A stretch of 45,672 bases of DNA from a virus. Position 1 is the first letter of the stretch. Each line of letters opens with the position of its first letter. Location: positions 1 to 45,672 of the IMG/VR virus record IMGVR_UViG_3300001203_000001; one strand, written 5' to 3'. The notes under the pieces are model-generated. The model was not told where the DNA came from, made no database searches, and saw only the letters and a list, made by a program, of their open reading frames with translations. Positions 3,001 to 32,871 of the stretch are shown in pieces. The translations under genes were made by a program, and so were the position numbers.

Positions 3001-4792
3001 CTTCTTCCTCCAATGGGATACCGCTAGAATCCTCTGGTGATAACCCCGAAGCTGTTTGAGCCTCCATCATATTCTCTTCCATATGAACATTAGCTTGCTT
3101 TTCAGCTTCCGATTGTTCTGATAATCTAATGAAAGGTTTTACAATGTCATAATCTTGAAGGTCAAGTAAATCCTCAATCATTTCTGCAAGTTTAATACCT
3201 GAGAAGTGTACCTTGACTTGTTCATCATTACCTAGAGGTGATTGACTCCAACTTGTTAAGCTTTGGATACGCTCAGCCCTCTCCACAAAATGTCTAGCCG
3301 CGACTGGCTTAAGTCTCCCGTTTGCAGACAAGTCTTCACTTGTTATATCTTCGAAGGTAACTGTATTAAACTCAGAATCAACAGTACGAACTGTAGCCTC
3401 AGTTAGATATTGTTTTGCTAAAACTAACATACTATTAAGTAAAGGCTCAAGAATCATTTCTTCAAATTGAGCAATTTTATTTTGGAAAATTCGAGAAGCT
3501 GCATTCTCTAATCGTTGTACTTCGTATGCTGTCTTCTCACCGGGGGTTCTAAAGCCCATAGCTTCTTTTGGTGAACCTGCCATCTCCTCCATACGGGATT
3601 CAATACTAGCAATCTCAAGGTTATTTTGTAAGGCATTTACATCAGGAGACTTGATTGAAACATCACCATCAGCATCTGAATAAATCTTAGCTAAAGGTTC
3701 ATAGTCAAAATCTTGAACTTCACCTTTTACCATAATCGGAGGGAATGTAATCAAATCTAGTAAATCAGATTTCATATTCTCGATATGGTCTAATCTATAT
3801 TGTAAACCAACCAGATTTTCTAGTGGCCCCATAGACCATAAGTTATCTTGTCGTACTCTCCACCCAGCATGATAAATAGGTATCTCAGCTAATGGGTAAG
3901 GATGCTCTTTTTTAAGAATGATTTTGTGTCTGTCAACAACCACAATCATATGATTCTTTAATAATTCATCATTCTCAGAGTCATACATATCCCCATAGAA
4001 AGTTAGGACTTCGATGTAACCAGACTCTAAATATTCTCTATATGACCCAAACCCGTCTACTCTTAATGCTTGATCTTTAGTTGTTTCGTCAGTACTCCAT
4101 GAACCGCAAGTACCTCGTACATCCATAATGTACTTCCAAACTGCTTGGGCGATCTCTTCTTCTTCTGGAGTTTTATCCATCCGATTAAGCATTTCTTTTG
4201 CTTCACCGATAGTCATTAAACTCTTAACAATTTTGGGTGTGTGCATGAAGTCCGTAGATAATGGATTAAACACAATATCAGATGGTGATATACGAACTAC
4301 TTGAGGCCCTACATATCCAATCTTAATACCATCTGAGTCAACACGCCTGTCAACCCACTCTGTAGTTCCTAGAGCATTCCCACTATCAATATAATCAAGA
4401 AGAAGTTTCTTTACCTCCGCCTTGAATTGAGGTTGAGACACAGCCCACATCATGTAGTCTTTTATCTTATTTACACGATCTTCTTGTTCATCACTTTCAG
4501 AATCACCCTCCCAATTCAACCAACGTCTTTTAGGAAACATGGTTGCTAAATAGTTAGAGTACAAATTATCCCTGATCTGTGTTAGCTTAGGGATAGTTGT
4601 TGTGTTACTCCAAGGAAGTTTCGCGTTTGTTGTATGACGAGTATCTGTAGCGTACAAATAGTTACGTAGTTCTTCCCAACGACCTAAGGTTTGCCCCCGA
4701 GCTGAGTTCCACTGCATCCATCGATTCGAGATGACACTTGCCATCTGATCTTTAGTTAATACACCGTCTAAGTCTAATGTCTTACCAGCCAA
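2990..4792 (-). CDS. portal (head-tail connector) protein
   Basis: 600 aa, directly downstream of the large terminase, with an acidic C-terminal tail (PLEEEVEE). Size and position match T7 gp8-type portals. Confidence 0.75.
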   Translation of the reverse strand: MAGKTLDLDGVLTKDQMASVISNRWMQWNSARGQTLGRWEELRNYLYATDTRHTTNAKLPWSNTTTIPKLTQIRDNLYSNYLATMFPKRRWLNWEGDSESDEQEDRVNKIKDYMMWAVSQPQFKAEVKKLLLDYIDSGNALGTTEWVDRRVDSDGIKIGYVGPQVVRISPSDIVFNPLSTDFMHTPKIVKSLMTIGEAKEMLNRMDKTPEEEEIAQAVWKYIMDVRGTCGSWSTDETTKDQALRVDGFGSYREYLESGYIEVLTFYGDMYDSENDELLKNHMIVVVDRHKIILKKEHPYPLAEIPIYHAGWRVRQDNLWSMGPLENLVGLQYRLDHIENMKSDLLDLITFPPIMVKGEVQDFDYEPLAKIYSDADGDVSIKSPDVNALQNNLEIASIESRMEEMAGSPKEAMGFRTPGEKTAYEVQRLENAASRIFQNKIAQFEEMILEPLLNSMLVLAKQYLTEATVRTVDSEFNTVTFEDITSEDLSANGRLKPVAARHFVERAERIQSLTSWSQSPLGNDEQVKVHFSGIKLAEMIEDLLDLQDYDIVKPFIRLSEQSEAEKQANVHMEENMMEAQTASGLSPEDSSGIPLEEEVEE

Positions 4793-4802
4793 ATTCTATC
4801 CT

Positions 4803-6353
4803 TTAACCCATACCACCAAAACGGTGATGGGTAATGTCAGCCCAAGGGCGTTTACGTTTGTATACAGTATTCATTGATGGAGCTATTGCGATTTCAATTG
4901 CGGATGCTAAACAATCCTTAATGTCATCATGTGGTGGTTTTTGGAGTACTAGCTCTTCCTCTAATAACTCACAGTTACCACCTTTATAGTGCCACATCTG
5001 TAGGTTTTGGTACTTAGCATTAAGAGCCGCTTCAATACGCTCTTCTTTAGTTCCTAAATGTCTAGAGGGACGAAACTCGTCTATAGATAACGACAACCCA
5101 AATGGTCTAATGTAATTATCTTTTAAATCCCGGACAATAATCTTCTGGGCTGCGTTTACCTCAGCCCTTAACTTTTTGAATCCCCACTTTTGGTATAGCT
5201 TCAAGATTCTATCAAAGTAATCCTTGATCTTCTCTGTCTTAAATCTATCAATATCGAGAACATAGTAATTATTATTAGTGTCAACACCTACCACAACAAT
5301 AGCTGTATAATCTGCTTTTCTAGCTAGTGAAAACGCAAAGTCTACTGCTGCGAAAACATTTAATCTCTGATCTTTATAGTAGACAAAACCATCTTTTCTA
5401 ACGACTGAAGTCTTCTCGTAGTGTTGGAACCAATCCTTATCAATAGGTGGGTTATCAGAATCATTCGGATCATTATAATACTGAGCTCTAAACTGAAGCT
5501 TATTTAGGTATTGAGCCTTCTTTTTCTCAAGGACTTCTCTGTTAAATCCAAACCAATTACCATCATGTCTTTGTTGTCTAGGCCAAAGGAATTGCCCCGA
5601 ACCATCTCCTACATCCTCTACAACCCGTTCAAATAACTCATATAGAGGAGATTCTTTTACTAGTTCCCCCTCAGGGCTATATGACTTAAGATTCATAGAC
5701 ATCATCTCCCCATATAAGTCGTTGGGGTTATATCTTGTACCTACTACGATTTCTTTAGCTTCTGCACCCTCAATAGATGACAAGAAGGAATACTGAGTTT
5801 TTACTTTCTCTCGGCCTGCTTCTTTATCAGCATTATCCCCTGTTACAACATCGTCTAGAACAGCGATGTCACAGTGAAGTCCAACAATACCAGTCGTTAA
5901 CCCAGCAATAAAGATACTAGGATCACGAATAGCCTCGGCCTTACGTTTGGGATGATCTACTGAAATTTCCCACTCTGTCCATTTTTCTCTTTTACCTTCA
6001 TCTGGGTGAGTCATCTCAGGCCAGTATCTACGATATGTAGGGTGGTCTAAAATATCCTTTATAAATTTAAGCTGCTTAGCTGCAAGATTAGATGTTGAGG
6101 AGATATAGAGAATGCGAATTGCTGGATTTTTAGTAAGTTCCCATGCGGCTCTATATCCAGCCATTGCAGATTTTCCGTGATCCCGTGGTAATAAGCAGAG
6201 TTGATGTGATTTAGCATCTTGTCTTGTCCACCAACTAATTAAATCCTTGTGTACTTGACCCAATACGCGTTGGGGGTGTACAAGATTGATAAAAAACTCC
6301 AGATCAGACTCAGCCCTCTGCTTTATCTCTAAAATTTTTTGTTTTTTATCCAC
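4803..6353 (-). CDS. terL: terminase large subunit
   Basis: 516 aa. Walker A-like PRDHGKSA, Walker B-like CDIAVLDDVV, and a C-terminal RNaseH-like nuclease segment (AAVDFAFS..DYTAIVVVG). Located upstream of the portal. Confidence 0.85.
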   Translation of the reverse strand: MDKKQKILEIKQRAESDLEFFINLVHPQRVLGQVHKDLISWWTRQDAKSHQLCLLPRDHGKSAMAGYRAAWELTKNPAIRILYISSTSNLAAKQLKFIKDILDHPTYRRYWPEMTHPDEGKREKWTEWEISVDHPKRKAEAIRDPSIFIAGLTTGIVGLHCDIAVLDDVVTGDNADKEAGREKVKTQYSFLSSIEGAEAKEIVVGTRYNPNDLYGEMMSMNLKSYSPEGELVKESPLYELFERVVEDVGDGSGQFLWPRQQRHDGNWFGFNREVLEKKKAQYLNKLQFRAQYYNDPNDSDNPPIDKDWFQHYEKTSVVRKDGFVYYKDQRLNVFAAVDFAFSLARKADYTAIVVVGVDTNNNYYVLDIDRFKTEKIKDYFDRILKLYQKWGFKKLRAEVNAAQKIIVRDLKDNYIRPFGLSLSIDEFRPSRHLGTKEERIEAALNAKYQNLQMWHYKGGNCELLEEELVLQKPPHDDIKDCLASAIEIAIAPSMNTVYKRKRPWADITHHRFGGMG

Positions 6354-6638
6354 TTATTTACCTTTATAACTAATCCAACCTAATAATCTCACCCAAATCC
6401 AATAGAACCATGCAATGAGTACACATATTAATATCTTTAATACTGGTTTTGATTTGCTGGCATCTCTAAGCATGGCTTGTAAAAATTTCATATCACAAAT
6501 ATACCTAGAAGGATTACCTCTTTTATATCCAATATCGTGTTTTGACCAAGATGCTTCATTAAAAAATCTTAAACTAAATTTAGTTAGTTTATCTCTTACG
6601 GAGGAAGGAAACCAACTAGGACCTACTCCATTAACCAT
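6354..6638 (-). CDS. small protein with an HDxxY motif and a C-terminal transmembrane helix (DUF1353- or phospholipase-A2-like?)
   Basis: The ATG at 6638..6636 overlaps the upstream stop (TGATG). Motifs: NGVGPSWFP ... SKHDIGY ... CD, then hydrophobic ILICVLIAWFYWIWVRLLGW. Confidence 0.45.
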   Translation of the reverse strand: MVNGVGPSWFPSSVRDKLTKFSLRFFNEASWSKHDIGYKRGNPSRYICDMKFLQAMLRDASKSKPVLKILICVLIAWFYWIWVRLLGWISYKGK

Positions 6639-7036
6639 CAATCTAACTCAGATGCAAATAACCACATTTCATCTAACTTATCTTGTGGAATTTGTAAAAT
6701 AGAAGCCAATGCAATCACAGTTGGTTCTGACATACTATAGGTAGTGGCATATTTTAGTTTATTTTCTACCACTGTTTTAGTAGGTTCTGTAAGACTGTTT
6801 ATAGCCCCCTCTAATAAATCTGACATTCCATATATTTCTAATGCGGAATGAAATTGCCATGATTGTATTGTATCTGGTATTTTCTTATAATCTTTATTGA
6901 TTTCATAGGAATAAGGTATGTTATCATCCACACCTTCTCCTATGATATTCAAATGAGAAACAAAACTATCCGGGTCTTGCATATCCGGAACAACACCTAC
7001 TACAATTTCTTTTTTATTTTTTAATAGATATTCCAT
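6638..7036 (-). CDS. hypothetical protein (possible fibre-associated or assembly protein)
   Basis: Start moved to the ATG at 7036..7034, which overlaps the fibre stop (TAATG). The longer ORF-track start would overlap the fibre gene by 55 nt. Confidence 0.55.
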   Translation of the reverse strand: MEYLLKNKKEIVVGVVPDMQDPDSFVSHLNIIGEGVDDNIPYSYEINKDYKKIPDTIQSWQFHSALEIYGMSDLLEGAINSLTEPTKTVVENKLKYATTYSMSEPTVIALASILQIPQDKLDEMWLFASELD

Positions 7037-8349
7037 TACAAATTCCTCATATTGGGGATAACACCTGAATTGGGGTCTACATCCTTCCAACCCTCAGAAT
7101 AGGCAGGTAGTGCCATTAAATATTCAGCGCCTTGAGGGGCATAAAAATAAATGGGGTATGGAGAATACCCATAGAAATACCTAGGGTCTTCCTTAGTTTT
7201 GATAGTTATACTTTTCCAACCATCTGAGGGAGTTAATACAACATCCCCGGGTTGTTCTACACCATCCAGATATATCTTATTACTTCCAAAATCCCCTCTT
7301 ATACACAATGTTTGTGTCAAACACTTAGTATAACAATGAAAAGTAGTCTCTACCGGTCTAACTCCACTCATAAATAGAGATAAATAATGAGTGAGAGAAC
7401 CAGTAGGCTGATACCCCCCGGCTACCCCATTACCTGCTGTAAGTTTAGCCACCCAAAATTCAATACCATACCTACGATATAAACTACTCGCCTTAAGTTT
7501 TACCATCAACTCTGCTACTTCGGGGTCTAATACCCCGGCTGTTCCGCCATAAGTGGTATTATTATGTATAAACTTACCATTACTTTGTGTTGTAACCCCA
7601 TTGTATTTTACAAAATAATTTGGAAAACTAAAACTTTCAGGGGAAGTTACAGATAAATGAGTAGCCCCATTAAATCGTCCACTATCAAATAGATAATTAG
7701 TAAAAAACCCACCTGAGGAAGGTAACCCTATATCAAAATTAGCATCTTGTGCAGTACCTATATTAGTGTAGGTAGGAGGGGAGCTAGGGGATAACATGGT
7801 TATTGAATTAATGGAAAAAGTACCAGAACCGTCCGTTCCCGTATCTCCTTGAATACCCTGAGGACCTTGTATACCTTGAGGTCCTGTAGCTCCTGTATCT
7901 CCTGTATCTCCTTGAGGACCTGTATCTCCTGTATCTCCTTGAATACCCTGAGGACCTTGTATACCTTGAGGTCCTTGTGGACCTGTATCTCCTTGGATAC
8001 CTTGAGGTCCAGTATCACCTGTATCACCCTTCGGGATGGAGAAATCAAAAATCGCGGCTTTTGTAGTTCCTGAGTTTGTAATCGTCGCTGTCGTGCCAGA
8101 GGAGGCCTGTGTGACCGTGCCTAACGACACAGTTGCTTCTAGGTCACTAGCGTCTTGGCCATTGATTTGGCCCACGTTTAAAAGGTCGTTGTTATCTAAG
8201 TCTAGGTCTTCCCCCATAGAGTTGGGAGTAGTACCATCACGAGATAAAGTCTTTTCAAGAGCGTCTTCGACTGCTTGAAAATTTTGATTGATGCGACTGA
8301 TAGCTGTGTTACTAAAGTCTGCAATATCTTCTGTAGTAAGCTTAGTCAT
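7036..8349 (-). CDS. tail fibre protein with a collagen-like Gly-X-Y domain
   Basis: 437 aa. The N-terminus ([26 protein letters not shown]) is shared with the second fibre. There are 23 uninterrupted G-X-Y triplets ([13 protein letters not shown]...). Confidence 0.8.
7822..8028 (-). repeat. coding tandem repeat (9/18-nt periodicity) encoding collagen-like GXY triplets
   Basis: Repeated ggtgatac/ggaccttgtataccttgagg-type units are visible in the DNA. They correspond to fibre residues about 108-176. Confidence 0.85.
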
Positions 8350-9510: not shown

Positions 9511-9539
9511 ATTATACCATATTTACGGAAAGATGTCAA
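9511..9539 (-). promoter_or_regulatory. consensus sigma70 promoter for the leftward (structural) arm
   Basis: The minus strand reads TTGACA (9539..9534), a 17-nt spacer, then TATAAT (9516..9511). Confidence 0.75.
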
Positions 9540-13259: not shown

Positions 13260-13685
13260 TTGACAAAATTAGTATTCGTGTACGGCACGTTAAAATCAAA
13301 TTTCTCAGGAAAGCATTACTTTAAAACTAATCCTATCATTGGCAAGACAAAAGCTGACTACGTGGTGTTTGGTAAAGGTTTTCCTAAAGCATTGAAGACT
13401 GAAGATTATTTCAACCGAAAAAACCCACTAACAAATCCTCAAATCGGTAAATTACGTGGTGAAATCTACTCTGCTGGTGAGACAACTCTACAGCAATTAG
13501 ATCGATACGAAGGTTATCCATCTTTCTATTCTCGAGAAGAAATTGAAGTGGAAACACCAGACGGTATTGTCAAAGCTTTGATGTACCACGCTAACGAAGC
13601 TGCTGATGTAGATTTAAGTCAACAAACTTATGTTGAAGTCGATGCTGATGGTGACCTTCTGTGGCCTGAACAACTGGCTGGTTAA
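13260..13685 (+). CDS. gamma-glutamyl cyclotransferase-like (AIG2/GGACT family) protein
   Basis: TTG start with an AAGGAG RBS. Hallmark motifs VFVYGTLKS near the N-terminus and LDRYEGYPSFYSREEI. Confidence 0.75.
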   Translation: MTKLVFVYGTLKSNFSGKHYFKTNPIIGKTKADYVVFGKGFPKALKTEDYFNRKNPLTNPQIGKLRGEIYSAGETTLQQLDRYEGYPSFYSREEIEVETPDGIVKALMYHANEAADVDLSQQTYVEVDADGDLLWPEQLAG

Positions 13686-13722
13686 TACCGGTTTAATTTT
13701 ATTTATTATAAGGAGTCCATAT

Positions 13723-15054
13723 ATGTGTGGATTATTTGGAATGGTATCAAATGCCGCTCTATCAGCTAGTGAGCGAGAGGTATTTAGTACTGGATTAATG
13801 CTTAATGTAACTCGTGGGGAAGACTCCACAGGTGTTATACGGGACATGGGGGGTCGTATCGAAGTAGACAAGTCTGCTTGTCCTTCCCCTTATTATGTCT
13901 ATACACAATCTGGGTCAGACTTTATTTCTGGTTCAGATACTATTGATCGTGTAGGTAATGTTGTGTCTAAAGACAAGGGGTACTTCCTTTTAGGTCACAC
14001 ACGTTCGGCTACTATCGGTAGTGTAACTGAAAACAACGCCCACCCGTTTTCGTTTAAGAATGTTGTGGGAATGCATAACGGTACTATTAAAAATAATTTT
14101 ATAGGGTCTAGTAAATTCGGGACAGACTCCGAAGCTTTATATAAATTAATTTCTGATATGGGAGTACATAATGCTCTTAAAGAAGTTACTAATGGTATCG
14201 ATGGGGCAGCTTATGCTTTAACTTTCTTTGACCGAACTGATGGGTCTTTGAAAATTATTCGTAATACAAAAAGACCCTTGTGGTTTGCTTATATGACGAA
14301 CGGAACAACTTTAGTTTGGTCTTCTGAGAAAAAACATCTTTTTGATGCTATTAAAGGGTACAGCAGGAATCCTATCACTGAACTAAAGAAAGAAGATATT
14401 GACTCCGACCACTTTGAGTTTGATGAAACTCTTAATATGTTCTCTCCTAAACCTAACAGATTGATTACTATTAGTAAGGACAGTAACGTCTCTGACTTTA
14501 CCGTAGAACATTTAGTGGGATTACCAGCGGATGGTGGTGAAATATTGGGTTACACAGCCTACGGCTACGGTCATGGGAATACCTATCATCATAAGGCTGC
14601 TTCTACTGCAAAAAAGCAGGTAACGTCAAGCCAGACATCTCTTCCTCAAGGGAGTCTAAAAGATATTCGGGAATTCGAAAGCTACTTGGACTTGACGTAT
14701 AGAAATCTTAAGCAGCTACATAAGAAAAGATTGAACCGACTACCTTGGTTACATGAAGCTAAGGGGGCAGAGGTTGTACCTTTTGTAAAAAAGCCTAGAG
14801 TAGAGGTTATAGAAGAGTCTCAAGTCTCTTTTGTAGGTTCTACAAATATAAAATATCCCGGCCCTAACAACGCTTTAATTGATTACGATGGGATAAAAAA
14901 AGAATTAGCGGATGGTTGTGCTTGTTGTACTAGACAATTATTCGCTGATACAATGAGACCTGATGCCTTGAGTCAAATAAAATGGCTTTCAGGTGGTGGA
15001 TTTGTATGTCAACCGTGTGTTAATGAAAACCCAAGTTTATACTTTATGAATTAG
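13723..15054 (+). CDS. class-II (Ntn) glutamine amidotransferase domain protein with a C-terminal Cys-cluster extension
   Basis: The ATG at 13723 (AAGGAG RBS) gives MCGLFGMVS, with the Cys2 nucleophile. Further motifs: RGEDSTG, GHTRSATIG, NAHPF, MHNGTIKN, GTDSEA. The C-terminus carries CACC..CQPC. Confidence 0.85.
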   Translation: MCGLFGMVSNAALSASEREVFSTGLMLNVTRGEDSTGVIRDMGGRIEVDKSACPSPYYVYTQSGSDFISGSDTIDRVGNVVSKDKGYFLLGHTRSATIGSVTENNAHPFSFKNVVGMHNGTIKNNFIGSSKFGTDSEALYKLISDMGVHNALKEVTNGIDGAAYALTFFDRTDGSLKIIRNTKRPLWFAYMTNGTTLVWSSEKKHLFDAIKGYSRNPITELKKEDIDSDHFEFDETLNMFSPKPNRLITISKDSNVSDFTVEHLVGLPADGGEILGYTAYGYGHGNTYHHKAASTAKKQVTSSQTSLPQGSLKDIREFESYLDLTYRNLKQLHKKRLNRLPWLHEAKGAEVVPFVKKPRVEVIEESQVSFVGSTNIKYPGPNNALIDYDGIKKELADGCACCTRQLFADTMRPDALSQIKWLSGGGFVCQPCVNENPSLYFMN

Positions 15055-15062
15055 GAGATATT

Positions 15063-15893
15063 ATGTCTAATAAAACATTTGATAATTTAAAAGATGCTAT
15101 CGCACATACAAAAGATGTGATGTATCAAACTATGGGAACTCGTAGAAGTTTTGGTGTGGTATGTGAATTAGATGGAGTATTCCAGTCTATGTTTGCTTAC
15201 AATCAACCTTGTTGGGGAGGCATTCGTAAATATGCCTCTGATTCAAATAATTGTACTAGACCGGATGATGAAAAACCTTCCGATTTAGACTATAAATTCC
15301 CTGAGGGAAGCCCTATGTTCTTGTTAGTTGGTAGTACCGACGGTAGTTTACCAGAAGAACACGAGAAATCACAGGAGGTTTTAGACTTATTATTCTCAAA
15401 AGATTCTCCTTGGAAATCTGGGTTTGATCCTGATACAACTGTATATACACGTAAGAATAAACGATTGTTTATTGAGTTTAATAATACAGACATAGACCCA
15501 ACAACCATGATTAATTTTATTAATACAGTTTTCTCTGGGTTGAGTGTTACACACTACAGTTACTATCGAAACCTAGGTTTAACACCTATTAAATCAGTTA
15601 TGTTGACTTGCTACTTAGGCTCTTGTCATTTTGACCTTGAGTATGGTGGAAAACCTTTTAGCTACCAAAATCAATACTATTACGGTAGAACTTTTGGGAT
15701 GAAGGAGTTCTTGGAAGGTAAGCCAACCTCTAAGAAAGAGAGTTTTAAACAAGGGGTTGACTATAATCGAGTAGGTCTTGCTGATATTTTCTCCAAGTCA
15801 GATGGTATTAACCTTGTAAAACACATGAACAAAACCGTTAAACAACCAAGTGATATTGAAACTGAGCTTGACAAAGTATTGAAGGGAATTTAG
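15063..15893 (+). CDS. hypothetical protein (no recognisable family) inside the ligase operon
   Basis: 276 aa, AGGAG RBS. The stop abuts the next start (TAGATG). Confidence 0.7.
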   Translation: MSNKTFDNLKDAIAHTKDVMYQTMGTRRSFGVVCELDGVFQSMFAYNQPCWGGIRKYASDSNNCTRPDDEKPSDLDYKFPEGSPMFLLVGSTDGSLPEEHEKSQEVLDLLFSKDSPWKSGFDPDTTVYTRKNKRLFIEFNNTDIDPTTMINFINTVFSGLSVTHYSYYRNLGLTPIKSVMLTCYLGSCHFDLEYGGKPFSYQNQYYYGRTFGMKEFLEGKPTSKKESFKQGVDYNRVGLADIFSKSDGINLVKHMNKTVKQPSDIETELDKVLKGI

Positions 15894-16772
15894 ATGTTAG
15901 AAGGTATGAAAAGAAAAAATTTAATCGGGGCTGACCCTGAATTATTTGTGAGAAACTCTGGTCATAAATTTGTATCCGCACACGATTTGATTCCGGGTAC
16001 AAAAGCAAAACCTTTTAGAGTCAATGGAGGGGCTATACAGGTAGACGGAGTAGCCGCTGAATTTAACATTGATCCTGCGGATAGAGAAGACGATTTTGTA
16101 GAGAATATGACTTCTGTATTAGAGGAATTGGATAATCACATTAAAAAAGATCACCCTTCCTATCATTTACAAGTATCCCCAGTGGCTTCTTTTCCTAAGA
16201 AATATTTTAACGCTCTTCCAGAAGAAGCTAAGGAATTGGGTTGTGAAGCTGACTTGAACGCTTGGTCAGGAAAAAGAAACCCGACACCATCCACTAAAAA
16301 ACCTATTCGTACTGGTGGTGGACACATTCATATTGGTTGGACTGACGATGAAGATATCACAGACGCTGCTCATGTAAATGATTGTGTCCAAGTCGTTAAA
16401 CAACTTGATTCGATTCTTTATCCTCTGTCTATGCTATGGGACGAAAATAGCGAAAGACGGAGTTTATATGGGATTATGGGGTCTTACCGAGTGAAAGAGT
16501 ATGGAGTCGAGTATCGACCTTTATCAAATGCTTGGGTCGCTGACCCAGACCTGTATAGATGGTTGTTCCGAACTATTCAAGAAGCAATGGAGCACTTGGA
16601 TAATGATCTACGTATCTACCACGACAAAGACACTAAGAATATTCTGGAGTGGTGTCGAGGTAATTCTCATAAGAATTTAAAGAGAAATACAATACTTGCA
16701 CACTATAAATTCTTAGTGAATGAGTTAGAGCTTCCTCTACTCCCTTCTTATTATATTAACCCAAGTCAATAG
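15894..16772 (+). CDS. COOH-NH2 (carboxylate-amine) ligase, phiEco32-like type 2 amidoligase
   Basis: Motifs IGADPELFV, VDGVAAEFNIDPA, GGGHIHIGW and YGVEYRPLSNAWV match my recollection of the phage GCS-superfamily ligase family (Pfam COOH-NH2_lig). Confidence 0.65.
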   Translation: MLEGMKRKNLIGADPELFVRNSGHKFVSAHDLIPGTKAKPFRVNGGAIQVDGVAAEFNIDPADREDDFVENMTSVLEELDNHIKKDHPSYHLQVSPVASFPKKYFNALPEEAKELGCEADLNAWSGKRNPTPSTKKPIRTGGGHIHIGWTDDEDITDAAHVNDCVQVVKQLDSILYPLSMLWDENSERRSLYGIMGSYRVKEYGVEYRPLSNAWVADPDLYRWLFRTIQEAMEHLDNDLRIYHDKDTKNILEWCRGNSHKNLKRNTILAHYKFLVNELELPLLPSYYINPSQ

Positions 16773-16779
16773 GTGAATA

Positions 16780-17418
16780 ATGCTATCTGTAAACACACGT
16801 TACGACCATCCAGATGACGCTATTATGCGATTAAGTAAGACATTCGTTAAGAATGAGGGTAGATTTGGGTATATTAGAGGTCGCAGAGAAGATTTTGATT
16901 TTTTACTACAGTACCCTGGTGGTACAGAAGTCTTAATCGATGTTAACTCTGAAGAAGTTGATATTAGCTCTCCTAAATTGGGTTTTATAAACTCTAATGG
17001 TCGAGCTTATTACCCAACTCTCACCCCAGTCAGAAAACAAAGACAGGGTGTCTGCTTAGATTACTTAATGTTACACGACACGTTAGGTACAAACTGGCAT
17101 TATGAGAAGTTATTCGAGGCAAACTATATTGAAACTGTATGTCTTATGCTTGAAAATACCTATCCTTCTTTAGAACAAGCTCTACAAATAGTATCTAAGA
17201 CTAAAGTAACTAAGATTAGTAGGCATAAATCGTGTGCCTTTTCTAGGAATTTAGCAGTTACTAACATCGGTCCAAACAAGGGGGAGTTCCTTCTCAACTT
17301 TAGAAGCCTACCTTGTGGGATTATACAAGACCAAAAAATTAGTTTGTTTGATAACCTATCTAGGATAACAAAAAACTCCCTGCTAAAACACCTAAACCAA
17401 GGAGGTTTTAATGCCTGA
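16780..17418 (+). CDS. hypothetical protein (no recognisable family) inside the ligase operon
   Basis: 212 aa. It overlaps the next gene by 8 nt. Confidence 0.7.
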   Translation: MLSVNTRYDHPDDAIMRLSKTFVKNEGRFGYIRGRREDFDFLLQYPGGTEVLIDVNSEEVDISSPKLGFINSNGRAYYPTLTPVRKQRQGVCLDYLMLHDTLGTNWHYEKLFEANYIETVCLMLENTYPSLEQALQIVSKTKVTKISRHKSCAFSRNLAVTNIGPNKGEFLLNFRSLPCGIIQDQKISLFDNLSRITKNSLLKHLNQGGFNA

Positions 17419-18469
17419 CATTGACGAATTTGACTTTTTTCAAACTTTACCGACAGAGGTTTCCAACCAACCATTTAACTCTACAACCAATTCTATGAAA
17501 CGTAAACGTCACGATCCATTCCAAGCTTTGACGGAAAACCCTTTACGTACTAAATTAGGTAGTGACCATCAAGGGGATATTGGTATTGAGATAGAGTTGG
17601 AGGTAAACCCACAGTGTGATTTCCCCCAATCCCCTGTCCACTGGTTATTGATTGGGGAAGACTCTTTGAGACATGGATTTGAGATTATAACTAAGGGTAA
17701 TCTACGTATTGGTACCTCTAGGTATAACAATACACTGGCATCTTTGTCAGAATTTTTAGGTAAACACAAAGATATTTTACAAACTAGTATTCGGACATCG
17801 ACGCACTTACATTTTAGTGTGTTAGACTATACTATCCATGAGATTTATAACATTTGTCTACATTACTATCTTATAGAAAATCTTCTTGTAGCCACTAATG
17901 ATAAATGTAGACATGGAAATCTATTTTGTCGTCGTCTTCAAGATGCTAATGGTATCATAAAACATATGAAAGAGTCTATAGCAAACGGTTCAATCCAATA
18001 CTTTGTAAATCAATATAAATACGGAGCATTAAATCTTGCCTCTATTTCTAATTTAGGCTCAGTCGAGTTTAGATTTATGGAGGCTTCTACAGACCCAAGC
18101 TTGACTAAGCTAAATTTAGATATTCAAATTCTACATAGTTTAGTGACTAAATGCCGTAGGTTTAATATCCATAATAGTATTAAACTAATTGAAGACCACG
18201 GTATAAAACCATTCCTATCATCCTTCTTAACTCAGGAGCAGGTGGAGTATCTAACCAATCTTGACATTGAAACATTAAATGAATTCTCGACTTGTAATCT
18301 TGCTGACGTAGAGAGTTTAGGACAATCCCTTGATAATCTAGGTATTAAACTTAAAAAAAGACATTGCCAACCACAGATAGCTGTACAACGGGATTCTGAT
18401 GAAGTTCACAGTCATTTTTTACCTGAGGACTACGACGGAGAGTTTTATACAGACCTGAAAGAGGCGTGA
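17411..18469 (+). CDS. putative amidoligase (glutamine-synthetase/GCS-fold, Amidoligase_2-like)
   Basis: GGAGG RBS. Motifs GIEIELEV, GEDSLRHGFEIIT, STHLHFSV and GSVEFRFMEAS. Confidence 0.7.
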   Translation: MPDIDEFDFFQTLPTEVSNQPFNSTTNSMKRKRHDPFQALTENPLRTKLGSDHQGDIGIEIELEVNPQCDFPQSPVHWLLIGEDSLRHGFEIITKGNLRIGTSRYNNTLASLSEFLGKHKDILQTSIRTSTHLHFSVLDYTIHEIYNICLHYYLIENLLVATNDKCRHGNLFCRRLQDANGIIKHMKESIANGSIQYFVNQYKYGALNLASISNLGSVEFRFMEASTDPSLTKLNLDIQILHSLVTKCRRFNIHNSIKLIEDHGIKPFLSSFLTQEQVEYLTNLDIETLNEFSTCNLADVESLGQSLDNLGIKLKKRHCQPQIAVQRDSDEVHSHFLPEDYDGEFYTDLKEA

Positions 18470-19386
18470 TGGAAGACTATGAAGAAGCAATGAAAAAGCT
18501 CGAAAAATACCAGAAATACCAGGAATTAATGCAACTAAAATATACTTATATATCTGATAAACCCAAAGATGAAGATGAAGGAGACGATATGTCAAAAATT
18601 AAATTTGTAGTATTACCCTACAATAAATATTCTAAGAGCGCTAAGATTTTAAAGGAATCTTTGGGTGGTGTGTTCCCTCGGCGCATGGATTTTAAAAACA
18701 GAATTGTTGTTAACTGGGGTTGCTCAGGAGGTCATAACGGCACTGTTCTAGATCACTTCAAGGAACAAGGTAATTTAGTCTTAAATCCTCACGAGATTAT
18801 CCAAAAGTGTTCTAATAAAAAATCATTCTTTGATCTAATGAAACAACATGGAGTTAGTCATCCAGATTACACAACTGAGGTTGGTGAAGCCTTATCTTGG
18901 GCGGCTGACGGTCTGGTATTTGGTCGAAATAAACATGGTCATTCTGGTAATGATATATCAAAATCAACAGAGTACTTAGAGTTTGGTAATTCAGATTTTT
19001 TAACAAAAGAATTTTGGGTTAAATATATCCCAAAGAAACATGAGTATAGAGTTCACATATTCCAAGGCGATATTATTGATTTTCAAAGAAAAGCTTTAAG
19101 AAAAACAGATTCACACGGTGTTGATATTGATACAGATAACGTTGATTTTACGATTCGAAATCTTAGTAATGGATTTGTGTTTATTCGTCAGGATGTTGAA
19201 TTACCTGATGATGTACGAGATCAATCCCTAAAAGCTTTTAAAGCCACTGGTTTAGATTTTGGTGCTATAGATGTCATCTATCAAGAAAAAACTAAGAAGG
19301 CTTACGTCTTAGAAGTGAATACTGCACCGGGTCTAGAAGGTTCGACTGTAGAAAATTATGTAAATGCAATAAAAAATAAATATTAG
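18469..19386 (+). CDS. ATP-grasp family ligase
   Basis: The ATG overlaps the upstream TGA. The C-terminal motif AYVLEVNTAPGLEG is typical of ATP-grasp enzymes. An alternative start at 18589 has a perfect AAGGAG RBS. Confidence 0.7.
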   Translation: MEDYEEAMKKLEKYQKYQELMQLKYTYISDKPKDEDEGDDMSKIKFVVLPYNKYSKSAKILKESLGGVFPRRMDFKNRIVVNWGCSGGHNGTVLDHFKEQGNLVLNPHEIIQKCSNKKSFFDLMKQHGVSHPDYTTEVGEALSWAADGLVFGRNKHGHSGNDISKSTEYLEFGNSDFLTKEFWVKYIPKKHEYRVHIFQGDIIDFQRKALRKTDSHGVDIDTDNVDFTIRNLSNGFVFIRQDVELPDDVRDQSLKAFKATGLDFGAIDVIYQEKTKKAYVLEVNTAPGLEGSTVENYVNAIKNKY

Positions 19387-19388
19387 GG

Positions 19389-19416
19389 TTGACAAAATAC
19401 CCACATATGTTATAAT
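19389..19416 (+). promoter_or_regulatory. consensus sigma70 promoter with extended -10
   Basis: AGGG-TTGACA (19389..19394), a 16-nt spacer ending in TGT, then TATAAT (19411..19416). Confidence 0.75.
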
Positions 19417-19465
19417 ATACATGAGGTATTAACGGAATTACCTAAATTTCTAGAAAGGAACAAAA

Positions 19466-19609
19466 ATGAATTATGATCTAATGTACTCTGCTGATTTCTA
19501 TAAGGTTTCACATAAGGCACAGTATCCTACTAATGTTACAAAAGTCCACTCAACACTAGTTGCACGTAGTGGCAATTTAAAGAAAGTAGTTGACAATGGA
19601 ACGTTTTAA
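19466..19609 (+). pseudogene. 47-codon fragment homologous to the N-terminus of nicotinamide phosphoribosyltransferase (NAMPT/NadV/Namat family)
   Basis: AAGGA RBS and ATG at 19466. ADFYKVSHKAQYPTNVTKVHSTLVAR aligns by eye with the conserved NAMPT N-terminus [26 protein letters not shown]. A stop follows 47 codons, and no continuation is seen in any frame. Confidence 0.6.
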
Positions 19610-20291
19610 GTATTATAAACGCGGTCAAGGGGAGTTAGATACGTCTAACTTTCCTGCTCTCCTAAGTGGTGTAACAGTTGATAAACTTGATGAAAAAACT
19701 TTTATGAGTTTGTTAGCACTACAATCCTATCATAAAAGTATCTTCAACCAGCATACTAACATAAATCCTTTTAATATTAAAGTAGAGGTATTAGGTTACG
19801 TAGCTCACCTAAGAGCTGATAAAGATTTGTTTAATTCTGCACAATTATATGAAGAATACTTACCTATTATGGATTTTGATATAAAAAATATCCAACACGA
19901 ATCAACATCTAAGATTAAATCCAGCAAAACTTCATGTTTTGAAATTCATATAGATTTAAAACCTGCCGGTAGTACTTTATACATTGGGGCTGATAAGTCT
20001 GTTAGTAAGTTTTGTGATGTAAAAGTTTGTGCAGATAAAATTCGTACTTACGGAAAAGTAACAGCCTTATATCTAGACTTAACTGGGATTGATCTGACAG
20101 AATACAAAAGTATTGTTATTGTTGATGATATTTTAGGTGGTGGGGCTACCATACAAATGGTAATTGATGCCCTACCTCTACCATTAAAGGTAACTAAAAA
20201 CCTCTACCTGTGGACTGCCTACAATGAAGGTATTCATAGACGTGAGTTTTTAGATCAATTTAGAGGGTATAATATTGGAGATTTAATATGA
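19596..20291 (+). CDS. shortened ribose-phosphate pyrophosphokinase (Prs)-like type I phosphoribosyltransferase-fold protein
   Basis: PRPP loop KSIVIVDDILGGGATIQMV. CADKIR aligns with Prs IIDKRR, GADKS with SPDHGG, and LGYVAHLRADKD with PYYGYARQDRK. About 231 aa versus about 315 aa for Prs. The start could be TTG 19590 or ATG 19596. Confidence 0.65.
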   Translation: MERFKYYKRGQGELDTSNFPALLSGVTVDKLDEKTFMSLLALQSYHKSIFNQHTNINPFNIKVEVLGYVAHLRADKDLFNSAQLYEEYLPIMDFDIKNIQHESTSKIKSSKTSCFEIHIDLKPAGSTLYIGADKSVSKFCDVKVCADKIRTYGKVTALYLDLTGIDLTEYKSIVIVDDILGGGATIQMVIDALPLPLKVTKNLYLWTAYNEGIHRREFLDQFRGYNIGDLI

Positions 20292-20476
20292 AATTAGCAT
20301 CACGATGCGAAGTTTGTGATTCAACCCCCAGCCATGATACATTGGCTGCATTAGGTATTAACACCCCTATTGCTTACTGGGTAACTATTAACCCCACAAC
20401 ATCTAGATGTAATAGATGCCACGAAGAAATCAATAATAATTTATCAGAACTAGGAGATAATGATGAACAAACATAG
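20288..20476 (+). CDS. small zinc-ribbon protein
   Basis: 62 aa with CEVC ... CNRC and an acidic tail. The ATGA overlaps the upstream gene. Confidence 0.55.
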   Translation: MKLASRCEVCDSTPSHDTLAALGINTPIAYWVTINPTTSRCNRCHEEINNNLSELGDNDEQT

Positions 20477-21017
20477 AATCGTATTATTTAGAGGTTTAGC
20501 TGGTAATATCTTTTCCAGAGGACTAGATAAATGGATGAAAAATTTTAAATCACGACCTCAAGATGGGATTATGCCTAATACTTGTTCTGTTCACTCTTAT
20601 ACAGAAGTTAAAAAAGTAGCTAATCAATTAGTGTCAGACTATCGTTCAGGTAAGATTAACCGAGTGACACTTATAGGACACTCACTAGGAGCAAGAGCAG
20701 CAATTAAATTACAGTCTGTATTATACCGACACAAGGTGCCAGTTTGTGCTGTAATATCCCTTGATTATGTTAAGAATATTGTAGGCCTTAATGATCTAAA
20801 AGGCCACCCTAAAATTTCAAACTTCCATATCCGGTCTAATGAAAAATCAAGACCTCGTAAATTAAAGAATGCCGTAGAGCGTAAATTCCCTGATCTAAAT
20901 CATATCCAACTTGATGATGATCCGAAAGTACATGATCTGATTACAAAATACGTGTGGTTAAACCAACAACTGGTTTCAGTTAAGGGACGTGGAGTTATCC
21001 ACATTAATAATCTGTGA
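20460..21017 (+). CDS. alpha/beta-hydrolase-like protein (GHSLG nucleophile elbow)
   Basis: 185 aa. LIGHSLGARAA matches the GxSxG lipase/esterase motif, with candidate Asp/His residues downstream. Confidence 0.5.
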   Translation: MMNKHRIVLFRGLAGNIFSRGLDKWMKNFKSRPQDGIMPNTCSVHSYTEVKKVANQLVSDYRSGKINRVTLIGHSLGARAAIKLQSVLYRHKVPVCAVISLDYVKNIVGLNDLKGHPKISNFHIRSNEKSRPRKLKNAVERKFPDLNHIQLDDDPKVHDLITKYVWLNQQLVSVKGRGVIHINNL

Positions 21018-22549
21018 ACGAGTGGGTAGATGTCCACATAGCATGTCCTTGTGGTAAATCTTCTGATGCTTATTGTATAAACGATAAGGGTTGGGGGACA
21101 TGTTTTTCATGTAATAAAAAATTTCCACCTAATGATATGGAGAAAGAAACATTGACAGTACCAGAAGATAGTACCTATGTTTATTATGCACATAGAGAAA
21201 TTTCGAAAACCGCGTTCTCTCACTACGAAGCATCGGTTCGTGTAGAGGATGGGGAACATAAAGAAGTTGGATTTAAGTACCCAAATGGGGCAGTCAAGAT
21301 TCGACTACTTTCTGATAAAAAGTTCTTTTCTCACGGGCCTATGAAAGATGCCCATCTGTATGGACAAGATAAGTTCGATAGAGGGGGGAAAGTTTTAACT
21401 ATTACTGAAGGGGAATATGATGCCCTAGCGGTGTGGGATTTAACTAGGACACCTACTGTATCTGTGAGATCATCTTCATCGGCAAGATCAGACTGTAAAA
21501 AAGAGTGGGATTATATTAATTCCTTCGATAAAATTATTATAGCATTTGACAACGATGAACCCGGGGATAAAGCTTCTAGGGAAGTTGCAGCCCTGTTCGA
21601 TTTTAATAAAGTTCACAAAGTTGTAATGTCCCTCAGCGACCCTAATGAATACTTACTACAAAACAAAGGGGTAGAGTTTGTTGAGCTTTGGAAAAACTGT
21701 AAGAAATACACACCAGATAATATTATTTCCGAGTTCTCAGAAATCCAAGGGAGCCTGTCAGAGCGTAAAGCTACTCGTCTGAGTACTTACCCCATCAAAG
21801 GGCTTCAAGATGCTCTGTATGGCCTTTACACTGGAGAGGTAATAGTATTTAAAGGTGATGAAGGTATTGGTAAGACAGAAATCTTCAGAGCGCTGGAATA
21901 TCACATCCTATCATCAAACCCGGATTCTCGTATGGGCATCATACACCTAGAAGAAAGCCAAGGTGATACAATCCGTGCTCTTGCTACCTACTCCGATAAA
22001 CATCCGTATGTTCACCTCGAAGACAATAGTAGTGAAGAACAAATTATGGAGGCCTACAAAAAAGCCGTTAATAACGATCCAAACCGAGTATATATCTATA
22101 CGAGTTTTGATATTGAAGATGAACAAGGGTTATTAGACAACATGAGGTTCTTAGTGACAGCCTGTGGATGCCAATTTATCTTCCTTGACCACATTACGTG
22201 GCTCGCTACAGGTGGTGAAGGAGATGATGAACGTCGTAAATTAGATCGATTATCACAAAAAATGAAGCTTCTAGCAAAAGAGCTTGACTTTTGTCTTATT
22301 ATGATCTCCCACACTAACGATGATGGTAAAACTCGAGGTAGTCGTAATATTAGTAAAGTAGGTAATACTGTAATTCATATGTCTAGGGACAAAGAAGCAT
22401 TGTCAGATATGGAGAGACGTAAGACCTATTTCACAGTCGAGAAAGGCCGTGGCGGTGGTACTACAACTGGTGAAGCAGGTTATGCTTTGTTTGATCCAGA
22501 GACGTTAACACTACAGTCACCCCCTACTGCAACAACTGATCTACCATAA
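21014..22549 (+). CDS. bifunctional DNA primase/helicase (T7 gp4-like)
   Basis: Zn finger CPCG..CFSC. TOPRIM motifs TEGEYDALA and FDNDEPGDKA. Walker A GDEGIGKTE and Walker B IFLDHI. The GTG start overlaps the upstream TGA. Confidence 0.85.
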   Translation: MNEWVDVHIACPCGKSSDAYCINDKGWGTCFSCNKKFPPNDMEKETLTVPEDSTYVYYAHREISKTAFSHYEASVRVEDGEHKEVGFKYPNGAVKIRLLSDKKFFSHGPMKDAHLYGQDKFDRGGKVLTITEGEYDALAVWDLTRTPTVSVRSSSSARSDCKKEWDYINSFDKIIIAFDNDEPGDKASREVAALFDFNKVHKVVMSLSDPNEYLLQNKGVEFVELWKNCKKYTPDNIISEFSEIQGSLSERKATRLSTYPIKGLQDALYGLYTGEVIVFKGDEGIGKTEIFRALEYHILSSNPDSRMGIIHLEESQGDTIRALATYSDKHPYVHLEDNSSEEQIMEAYKKAVNNDPNRVYIYTSFDIEDEQGLLDNMRFLVTACGCQFIFLDHITWLATGGEGDDERRKLDRLSQKMKLLAKELDFCLIMISHTNDDGKTRGSRNISKVGNTVIHMSRDKEALSDMERRKTYFTVEKGRGGGTTTGEAGYALFDPETLTLQSPPTATTDLP

Positions 22550-31500: not shown

Positions 31501-31684
31501 TTATAAAGTAGAAGAAAAGAAACGTACTATCTATTTCAAGAGTGGTAATCGAGCCGTATTTAAGAATGTGACTTGGTTTAATCCAGACGGTACATTCTTG
31601 AGGTTTGGATCGGATGAAGGTTATGTCTTAATCAATATGAAAGAAATTGAATATATCATTATAGACGGAGAAAGAGTTAAATAA
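31493..31684 (+). CDS. hypothetical protein
   Basis: 63-aa ORF overlapping its neighbours. Confidence 0.5.
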   Translation: MPDYKVEEKKRTIYFKSGNRAVFKNVTWFNPDGTFLRFGSDEGYVLINMKEIEYIIIDGERVK

Positions 31685-32049
31685 TGGAAATTTATCATAT
31701 ATTAGTCTGTGGGGGTCGTGAGTATTCTAATTGGAATAAATTTCGAGACACCATAACCTCAGTTTTAGAAGATTGTCCATCTAATGCAACCCCTTGTATT
31801 GTACAAGGTGGAGCCAAGGGTGCAGACTTTATGGCTAAAATTTTTGCAATCTCTAGGGGTATCCTATACTTAGAATACCCTGCCAATTGGAAAGAATATG
31901 GTAGGTCAGCAGGCCATATTCGTAATCAAGAAATGCTTGATTCAAACTATATAAACATAGGGATTGTTTTTCCCGGTGGTAGAGGGACTCAAGATATGAA
32001 GAATAAATTAGTAAAAAACAATATTGATATTGTGGAGGTGGAGAAATAA
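31684..32049 (+). CDS. SLOG-fold protein (DUF2493/YspA-like)
   Basis: ILVCGGREY ... VQGGAKGADFMA ... FPGGRGT fits the Rossmann-like SLOG family pattern GGxxGAD. Confidence 0.55.
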   Translation: MEIYHILVCGGREYSNWNKFRDTITSVLEDCPSNATPCIVQGGAKGADFMAKIFAISRGILYLEYPANWKEYGRSAGHIRNQEMLDSNYINIGIVFPGGRGTQDMKNKLVKNNIDIVEVEK

Positions 32050-32228
32050 TGAAGAGACCCCAATACGGAAAAATCCTCGTTTCAGAAATCTTTAACACTC
32101 GAGCGGAAGCAGATGAGTTTGCTAAAGAAATGAAAGAGGATTACAAAGTAGCAGATATTTCAATCAAACATGACATACAAAGGACAACGGATTCCAGATG
32201 GAAAGCAATAATATATCAGAAGATTTAA
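32049..32228 (+). CDS. small hypothetical protein (59 aa)
   Basis: TAATG coupling at 32049. Just below the track cutoff. It overlaps the next gene start by 31 nt. Confidence 0.4.
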   Translation: MKRPQYGKILVSEIFNTRAEADEFAKEMKEDYKVADISIKHDIQRTTDSRWKAIIYQKI

Positions 32229-32536
32229 GTGAGGGTTTAAAGTTTGACAGCGATAAAATTCGCATGGAGCTACTCCCACCAGAGTTACTAACTAACACTG
32301 CTCAAGTATTAACCTTCGGAGCTAATAAGTATGCAGATCGTAATTGGGAACTAGGTATGGATTGGTCTAGGGTCTATGGTGCTTTAATGAGACACCTATG
32401 GGCTTGGTGGAATCCCCTCCAATCGTCTAAGGATGAAGAAACTGGGTTCTCCCACCTCTCTCATGCATCAGCTTGTTTAACATTCCTTATGGCTTACGAA
32501 GAACGTAATGTAGGAAAGGACGACAGACCAAAATGA
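32198..32536 (+). CDS. dATP/dGTP diphosphohydrolase-like domain protein (DUF5664, MazG-related)
   Basis: KFDSDKIRMELLPPELL..VLTFGANKYADRNWE..ALMRHLWAW matches my recollection of the phage DUF5664 family. Confidence 0.55.
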   Translation: MESNNISEDLSEGLKFDSDKIRMELLPPELLTNTAQVLTFGANKYADRNWELGMDWSRVYGALMRHLWAWWNPLQSSKDEETGFSHLSHASACLTFLMAYEERNVGKDDRPK

Positions 32537-32871
32537 GAAAAGTAATTATTGAATCCCCATTTGCGGGGGATGAAGAACGGAACATTGATTATGCTAGGTT
32601 GTGTGTTAGGGATAGTTTGTCTAAGGGTGAAGCACCTATTGCTAGTCACCTACTATACACACAAAAAACAATCCTAGATGACTCAATCCCAGAAGAACGT
32701 CAACAAGGTATTGATGCTGGGTTGGCTTGGCGTGATGTCGCAGATTCTACTGTTGTTTATGTTGATTTAGGTATTTCGAAAGGTATGGAATACGGTATCA
32801 AACGAGCAGAAGAACAGGGTATTAAGATAGAGTATAGAAGTTTAATCGATCAAGAAATGAGGAGTATTTAA
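32533..32871 (+). CDS. nucleoside 2-deoxyribosyltransferase-like protein (DUF4406-type)
   Basis: VIIESPFAGD..NIDYA..EAPIASHLLY is the pattern typical of this family, which is often adjacent to DUF5664 genes in phages. Confidence 0.5.
   Translation: MRKVIIESPFAGDEERNIDYARLCVRDSLSKGEAPIASHLLYTQKTILDDSIPEERQQGIDAGLAWRDVADSTVVYVDLGISKGMEYGIKRAEEQGIKIEYRSLIDQEMRSI

Follow-up and report, generated by a model that had tools for sequence, protein, structure and literature searches.

What is left of an NAD+-rebuilding system once one of its two genes has been almost wholly removed? Phages use NAD-rebuilding modules to restore NAD+ after bacterial defences destroy it, and the question is raised by a locus in the viral record IMGVR_UViG_3300001203_000001, which we analysed over its full 45,672 nucleotides (nt) and refer to below as the window. 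Here a 47-amino-acid (aa) open reading frame (ORF) derived from a nicotinamide phosphoribosyltransferase (NAMPT) gene, henceforth the stub (19466..19609, + strand), runs into an intact gene (19596..20291, +) coding for a compact 231-aa protein related to the ribose-phosphate diphosphokinases (Prs) and to Adps, the Prs-fold enzyme of the NARP1 pathway. We propose that this locus probably represents the remains of a two-gene NARP1-type NAD+-reconstitution module with a compact Adps, in which the gene for the NAMPT-family partner, Namat, has been deleted in the window phage.

The NAMPT affinity of the stub, previously suggested by a reading made from the DNA letters alone (hereafter the sequence-only reading), is significant by several measures. 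The stub matches the Pfam NAMPT_N profile (PF18127) with an E-value of 9.8e-7 and 29.4 bits against a curated cut-off of 25, the match spanning stub residues 5-44 and profile positions 2-42 of 98, and it matches PHROG 448 (nicotinamide phosphoribosyltransferase) at 1.6e-7. In tblastn searches of the window, full-length NAMPTs of related phages recover it at 59-76% identity (E 2e-11 to 9e-11). Codons 1-37 (19466..19576, +) correspond to the N-terminus of a Namat-like NAMPT with the DFYKVSH motif and are 81% identical to residues 2-38 of the NAMPT of one related lineage, L029; exact words of 4-13 residues (ADFYKVSHKAQYP, NVTKVHS and STLVAR) are common to stub residues 1-34 and the N-termini of the relatives' NAMPTs. 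To this extent the earlier proposal that the stub is a NAMPT N-terminus stands, but it fails for codons 36-47 and the stop (19571..19609, +), which we assign to the C-terminal end of the same NAMPT. Thus, stub residues 36-41, GNLKKV, are residues 435-440 of the 441-aa L029 NAMPT, which ends in GRFVGGNLKKVF and a stop codon directly before its partner gene, and LKKV forms the last residues of the NAMPTs in lineages L006 and L007. Furthermore, in lineage L031 a full-length 435-aa NAMPT ends in ELVEVYNGGI at a point 14 nt inside the partner gene, its stop being the TAA from the partner's F-K codons; the stub, which ends in NLKKVVDNGTF, has an identical geometry, the overlap with the next gene having been correctly recognised in the sequence-only reading.

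Taken together, the N-terminal words, the C-terminal GNLKKV and the overlap geometry in common with L031 indicate that the stub, as judged from its sequence, is the product of an in-frame internal deletion that kept about 37 N-terminal and about 10 C-terminal codons, with the junction lying within stub codons 35-37 (S-G-N). Relatives of 435-446 aa put the missing part at an estimated 390-400 codons, or about 1.2 kb. We also considered the possibility that residues 35-47 merely continue the NAMPT N-terminal loop, and rejected it in favour of a C-terminal origin because GNLKKV occurs in the L029 NAMPT at its very C-terminal end and the 14-nt overlap recurs in L031. A continuation of the NAMPT by frameshift or in an alternative frame was likewise rejected, as the compact gene occupies the space and tblastn finds nothing there. 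Indeed, when the sequences of three full-length relatives were used as tblastn queries, as the sequence-only reading had recommended, the stub was the only match, and no other NAMPT sequence was found in any frame of the closed genome. The NAMPT remnant in the window lacks, in all frames by tblastn, the catalytic type II phosphoribosyltransferase (PRTase) domain (PF04095) with its catalytic His and the Arg306 equivalent, and the aromatic clamp helix of Namat (equivalents of F392/Y396) is also absent from the window, this region having been deleted.

An alternative raised in the sequence-only reading is that the deletion arose artificially in assembly or sequencing, with the real phage carrying a full-length NAMPT. 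While short repeats around the junction might in principle lead an assembler astray, the same junction is present in three contigs that are 100% identical to the window across it: one from a JGI assembly (3300001263, BBAY83) and two from Logan assemblies of separate runs (SRR2835692 and SRR2835690). Moreover, the junction is in frame with both ends of the NAMPT gene intact, and a collection of 5.8 billion proteins yields no full-length sibling, the stub returning itself only in a search whose sensitivity is limited for a 47-aa query. Hence, we consider an artefact very improbable. As to how the deletion arose, both parental contexts carry an Asn codon after Gly or Ala, with VARGAN before Y at the N-terminus and, in L029, VGGN before L at the C-terminus; it is thus plausible, and probable, that short repeats around the Gly-Asn (GGC AAT) site recombined.

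We then examined the relatives that carry the compact gene. In 13 of 13 other lineages (L001/2/9, roseophage DSS3_VP1, L004, L006, L007/8, L010-13, L026/28, L027, L029, L030/33, L031, L032 and L034) a full-length NAMPT of 435-521 aa adjoins the compact gene or lies within about 0.9 kb of it. It is this comparison that makes a deletion-inactivated NAD+-reconstitution locus the best supported of the readings offered earlier, and the stub itself is an instance of ordinary gene decay or loss. The NAMPT is usually immediately upstream of the compact gene, with a 1-nt overlap, a spacer of 1-10 nt or the 14-nt overlap described above; in L004, L006, L007 and L032 the two genes are separated by a short gap or by one or two small ORFs, and in L030 the order is the canonical Adps-then-Namat. 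The presence of a full-length NAMPT near the compact gene in all 13 lineages speaks for the pair as the functional unit.

The compact gene, in contrast to its neighbor, has lost nothing. A search of 5.8 billion proteins recovered 57 homologues at 39-51% identity, which are 219-257 aa long and align end to end, the sole exception being a 149-aa fragment from an 872-bp contig. Its size is therefore normal for the family, and the earlier label of a truncated-looking Prs homologue was mistaken as regards the truncation, although its grouping with Prs was sound. An alignment of 28 family members displays 34 invariant columns, with invariant stretches including FKYYKRGxGELDTSNF, GYVxHLRxDKD, QHES, GADxSV, KxRxxGKV, VDDILGGGAT and LWxxYNEGIH, and the window copy departs from the consensus at just one of the 65 columns with at least 80% conservation. 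The alignment also supports a start at ATG 19596 (M-E-R-F-K-Y-Y), the TTG at 19590 having been considered and rejected. An exhaustive search of 1.84 billion representatives with a hidden Markov model (HMM) points to a small family, with 21 matches at E <= 1e-10; beyond it the search gave only proteins of 242-295 aa, and all of those that were checked were ribose-phosphate-diphosphokinase-like. Scans for compact-gene loci found at least three in metagenomes and, in genomes, two contigs of metagenome-assembled genomes that are phage-like in appearance. A non-exhaustive literature search revealed no paper describing the family, and one for truncated or marine Namats returned nothing relevant; the member in DSS3_VP1 (gp029) is labelled hypothetical in the genome paper of that phage (PMC8323127).

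To which enzymes is this family related? Searches of PDB by sequence only, whether with a single sequence or a profile, were uninformative, as they matched just the phosphoribosyl pyrophosphate (PRPP)-binding loop of many PRTases. Similarly, the type I PRTase profile PF00156 reaches only 18.3 bits on the window protein against a cut-off of 26.3, over the PRPP loop alone, though it matches 17 of the 28 family members at E < 0.01. An AlphaFold2 model built on the family alignment (pLDDT 94.2, pTM 0.88) was more telling. Its best Foldseek matches in PDB are PRPP synthetases (E. coli, Thermoplasma volcanium, human) over about 250 columns, with E-values of 3e-4 and above and query TM-scores of 0.45-0.50, whereas the alignments to single-domain PRTases cover only some 130 columns. 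In BFVD the DSS3_VP1 orthologue comes first, followed by phage Prs-like proteins, among them one from Listeria phage A511 (E 3e-6 to 2.5e-5, query TM-scores 0.49-0.58). Based on the model and these matches, the compact protein is predicted to adopt the two-domain PRPP-synthetase fold. Profile comparison agrees: hhalign aligned the family to a set of three Prs-like proteins adjoining Namat genes (in ICP1, Staphylococcus phage CUB-B of the Kayvirus group and Bacillus phage Hakuna) with 89% probability and an E-value of 2e-6 over 180 columns, pairing the family-invariant R73, K148 and D177/D178 with Arg87, Lys185 and Asp212/213 of ICP1 Adps, residues with a substrate-binding or essential catalytic role in the solved structures of Adps (PMC13586617). 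Candidate catalytic residues in the window protein are R73, D75, K76, K148, R150 and D177/D178, together with a candidate PP-loop, LGGGAT. By modelled fold, profile comparison and exhaustive HMM search, then, the nearest relatives of the family appear to be Prs and Adps, as anticipated in the sequence-only reading, and not PRTases of the Apt/Upp type.

The distinction between Prs and Adps bears directly on function, and here we turned to the partner NAMPTs of the relatives. These share about 42% identity with the Namats of NARP1 phages, as against about 32% with KVP40-type Nampts, and have a long beta1-beta2 loop. An aromatic clamp confers selectivity on Namat (PMC12774641), and the Namat-type clamp helix, G-x-G-[AS]-[YF]-T-Y-Q-[FLY]-x-T-R-D, is present in six aligned partner NAMPTs as well as in that of L031, where it was read directly, whereas the NARP2-type Nampts of phages nt-1 and BL02 have G-M-G-G-G-L-L-Q at the same position. 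It is mainly because of this clamp that we read the compact enzyme as an Adps analogue and not as a plain PRPP synthase. Under the latter alternative, the compact enzyme together with NAMPT would support a NARP2-like salvage of nicotinamide to nicotinamide mononucleotide, finished by a host Nmnat, and on its own would simply boost PRPP for nucleotides, so that the loss of NAMPT would cost little. In keeping with this, no solved fold is closer than that of the PRPP synthetases, Prs and Adps share the R-x-D-K and K-x-R motifs, the phage invests in nucleotide supply (a class II ribonucleotide reductase (RNR) and a dGTP/dATP diphosphohydrolase-like gene), and Namat keeps some PRPP activity (PMC12774641). 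However, the partner NAMPTs carry the clamp specific for pyrophosphorylated ADP-ribose (ADPR-PP) and rank with the NARP1 Namats, no Nmnat was found in the window or the inspected relatives, and the compact family is without the C-terminal helices and long regulatory loop seen in Prs and has no match to the Prs model TIGR01251. We accordingly regard a plain PRPP synthase as unlikely, if worth keeping in view.

The larger ORFs of the window and the Pfam matches for 9596-30291 showed no Nmnat, Nudix, Macro or NadR domain. With no other NAMPT and no Nmnat detected, the window phage therefore cannot complete NARP1- or NARP2-type synthesis by itself. Among the relatives, L032 has a gene for a Macro domain, a family of ADP-ribose binders and hydrolases, about 2 kb downstream of the compact gene (6335-6817 of that locus).

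How does this module compare with known systems? NARP1 consists of Adps and Namat, and 97% of the genes of the Adps clade have a Namat nearby (bioRxiv 10.1101/2024.02.11.579819). The module resembles NARP1 as found in SpbetaL1, Bas63, ICP1 and the Staphylococcus Kayvirus phages in comprising two genes, for a Prs-fold enzyme and a NAMPT-family enzyme, in the Namat-type clamp helix and long beta1-beta2 loop of the relatives' NAMPTs, in the alignment of the catalytic Lys, Arg and Asp-Asp of Adps with the compact protein, and in being restricted to phages. It differs in that the Prs-like protein has about 225 aa versus 278-302 aa in canonical Adps, is undetectable by Prs HMMs and bears an invariant N-terminal motif unique to it, FKYYKRGxGELDTSNF; the genes usually stand in the reverse order (NAMPT, then the compact gene), the partner NAMPTs mostly lack the last 30 or so residues of canonical Namat, and the reduction of Namat to 47 codons leaves no side-by-side pair of Adps and Namat in the window. 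Hence, of the NARP1-like pair postulated in the sequence-only reading, what we recover is a variant of NARP1 and not a canonical copy, its membership in NARP1 being one that we infer. With PRPP synthetases (Prs/PRPS; TIGR01251) the compact protein has in common the two-domain arrangement of its best structural matches in PDB and the motifs R-x-D-K/R, K-x-R and DD-x-x-x-G-G-T, but it is about 90 residues shorter, has no significant sequence-HMM match and is devoid of the long flexible regulatory loop and the C-terminal helices. NARP2, the Nampt-Nmnat system of vibriophage KVP40, also employs a NAMPT-family enzyme for NAD+ salvage; unlike in NARP2, no Nmnat was found here and the closest full-length relatives of the stub carry Namat-type clamp residues. 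The nearest cultured parallel is roseophage DSS3_VP1 (Naomviridae), the only cultured phage in GenBank with the compact gene (gp029, 44% identity), which lies beside a full-length NAMPT (gp030) that, unlike that of the window, is intact at 508 aa. In Table S2 of the NARP1 study (bioRxiv 10.1101/2024.02.11.579819) the 'Genomic environment' field of the DSS3_VP1 NAMPT is blank, being neither Adps- nor Nmnat-associated; the compact partner was therefore not recognised there.

By analogy with NARP1, the module of the related marine phages, a Namat-like NAMPT and a compact Prs/Adps-like diphosphokinase of about 225 aa, would operate in two steps: the compact enzyme would pyrophosphorylate ADP-ribose with ATP, and Namat would join the pyrophosphorylated ADP-ribose to nicotinamide to yield NAD+. 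In the window phage, the in-frame deletion took almost all of Namat while keeping the promoter, the ribosome-binding site (RBS), both ends of the NAMPT gene and the 14-nt overlap, such that transcription of the compact gene, and probably the coupling of its translation through termination and reinitiation, would be preserved. The expression signals lie where the sequence-only reading had placed them. A sigma-70-type promoter (19389..19416, +), with TTGACA at 19389-19394, a 16-nt spacer with TG and TATAAT at 19411-19416, scores 12/12 and lies in the 79-nt gap 3' of an ATP-grasp gene whose stop is at 19386; a Shine-Dalgarno-like AAAGGA (19454..19459, +), seen directly in the sequence, stands 6 nt before the stub ATG at 19466. 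The whole genome has two such perfect sites against a mean of 0.076 in shuffled sequence (P(>=2) = 0.002), the other, TTGACA-17-TATAAT with TG at 9511-9539 (-), facing a leftward operon that starts at 9434. Furthermore, a predicted structure lying within the stub ORF partly pairs the compact gene's start codon, and this, along with the kept promoter, RBS and overlap, makes translation of the stub followed by reinitiation a reasonable expectation. The stub stop is embedded in UUUUAA (19603-19609), where tRNA-Phe would be able to slip by +1 on the four U's, so that the stub and the compact protein would be fused; the motif, which is not conserved in L031 (AUUUAA), is probably just a side effect of the F-K codons.

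A lone compact gene implies either that the deletion is recent or that the compact enzyme is useful alone. All available copies of the window locus are identical, and hence conservation after the deletion is not measurable. One form of the latter possibility, to which we give little credence, is that the compact family is an unrecognised branch of phage NAD+-reconstitution that works here without Namat, for example as an ADP-ribose sink or by handing ADPR-PP or PRPP to a host enzyme, with the stub kept for transcription and coupled translation. Another, which we also think doubtful, is that the compact enzyme alone forms a working one-gene module, as an ADP-ribose drain, a source of ADPR-PP for a host Namat or Nampt, or a means of interfering with ADP-ribose signals, with the stub as its leader ORF. 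The deviation of the compact gene at a single conserved column, the sparing by the deletion of exactly the promoter, RBS and overlap, the predicted pairing of the compact start codon inside the stub ORF, and the presence of NARP1 homologues in some bacteria (PMC12774641) all fit such a one-gene module. Yet each of the 13 other lineages pairs the compact gene with a nearby full-length NAMPT, canonical Adps genes almost always adjoin a Namat, and all available copies of the lone gene are identical. We therefore continue to favour a NARP1-type module that has lost its Namat.

Several points weigh against this preferred interpretation. The Prs sequence HMMs (TIGR01251, NCBIfam, Pfam) miss the compact family, with no Prs model matching at E <= 0.1, while canonical Adps proteins score 79-98 bits on TIGR01251, and the Foldseek TM-scores are moderate (0.45-0.58). 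H101 (of QHES) and D133 (of GADxSV), both invariant and probably the equivalents of His121 and Asp161, fall 2-3 positions away from those residues in the hhalign alignment, and the PP-loop reads LGGGAT as opposed to CDGAAS in ICP1 Adps. We infer an Adps rather than a Prs function for the compact family from the clamp motif of the partners and from synteny. The translational coupling of the stub and the compact gene is a prediction. The ancestral sequence and the microhomology at the junction are reconstructed from relatives only 50-80% identical because no close sibling with an intact NAMPT was found by blastn against GenBank phages, in a locus scan with the ATP-grasp protein or in the stub search of the 5.8-billion-protein collection. 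Finally, a single sampling campaign may have yielded all three identical contigs, and a full-length allele could possibly co-exist in the phage population.

The locus nonetheless has wider implications. A compact Prs/Adps-like family that standard Prs models miss has Namat-type NAMPTs as neighbors in 13 or more lineages of marine phages, DSS3_VP1 among them. If this family is Adps, then NARP1-type counter-defence reaches further into marine phages than current counts indicate, and an enzyme of 225 aa would be a minimal scaffold for the pyrophosphorylation of ADP-ribose. The window phage is, in effect, a natural Namat knock-out in which the deletion is clean, in frame and sparing of the expression signals of the other half of the module, which makes it a ready test of whether an Adps-type enzyme has a role alone; its locus also offers a dated case of the loss of an anti-defence module.

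The first 49 nt of the window are repeated exactly at 45624-45672, which marks the window as a circularly closed assembly and puts the genome at about 45,623 bp. This marine phage genome, with a GC content of 38%, encodes a T7-type terminase and portal, a primase-helicase, a family A DNA polymerase, endonuclease VII and the class II RNR. Directly 3' of the compact gene come, with no gaps, a zinc-finger ORF, an alpha/beta-hydrolase-like ORF and the primase-helicase. On the 5' side, a seven-gene operon (13260-19386, +) codes for a GGACT-like protein, a class II glutamine amidotransferase, a 276-aa protein, a COOH-NH2 ligase, a 212-aa protein (PHROG 11055), an amidoligase and the ATP-grasp protein, which is RimK-like (PHROG 2599); the operon looks like the peptide/amide-ligase cassette of LUZ24-like and other phages. 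The sequence-only reading had also entertained a Prs-like enzyme working with this operon, and the adjacency of the operon to the pair in the window, along with a glutathionylspermidine synthase two genes downstream of the pair in DSS3_VP1, could be taken to favour such a link. Against it, the stub and the compact gene are served by a promoter of their own, the DSS3_VP1 neighbors share no homology with the ligase genes of the window, other relatives place the pair among replication genes, and conserved neighbors are lacking. Moreover, L020, with a primase-helicase 54% identical to that of the window, has the ligase genes and the zinc-finger gene without the NAMPT/compact pair. We consider a functional link to the ligases highly unlikely. 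The absence of the pair from L020 indicates that it is an accessory cassette in the lineage of the window phage. L020 also carries, at 3132-5990 and 7541-7786, at least seven small ORFs of 79-105 aa all ending in (V)QIDK(Q/K)YE(E/D)LYT, which appear to be a family of tandem paralogues or a repeated 3' cassette.

A locus scan with the ATP-grasp protein of the window found no related loci, and blastn of 18400-21100 against GenBank phages found no close relative, the sole match being a 92-nt stretch of the ATP-grasp gene in Pseudomonas phage UFV-P2. Within the compact gene, a 12-bp RNA hairpin, GGGGAGTTAGA-TACG-TCTAACTTTCC (19628..19655, +), is predicted in the codons for GELDTSNFP, the best-conserved motif of the compact enzyme. 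Its stability is -13 to -16 kcal/mol in four lineages (the window, L001, L010 and L031) and weaker in L029, and its stem is kept by paired synonymous changes (TTA/TCT versus TTG/TCC); the hairpin is absent in L003, L004, L006, L007 and L030. Elsewhere in the genome, three adjoining small genes (31684-32871, +) code for a YAcAr/SLOG protein (PF10686, 7e-14), the N-terminal domain of a dATP/dGTP diphosphohydrolase (PF18909, 2e-30) and a DUF7768 protein (1e-34). As SLOG domains are predicted nucleotide-ligand binders, these genes could be another nucleotide-centred cluster, for counter-defence or DNA modification.

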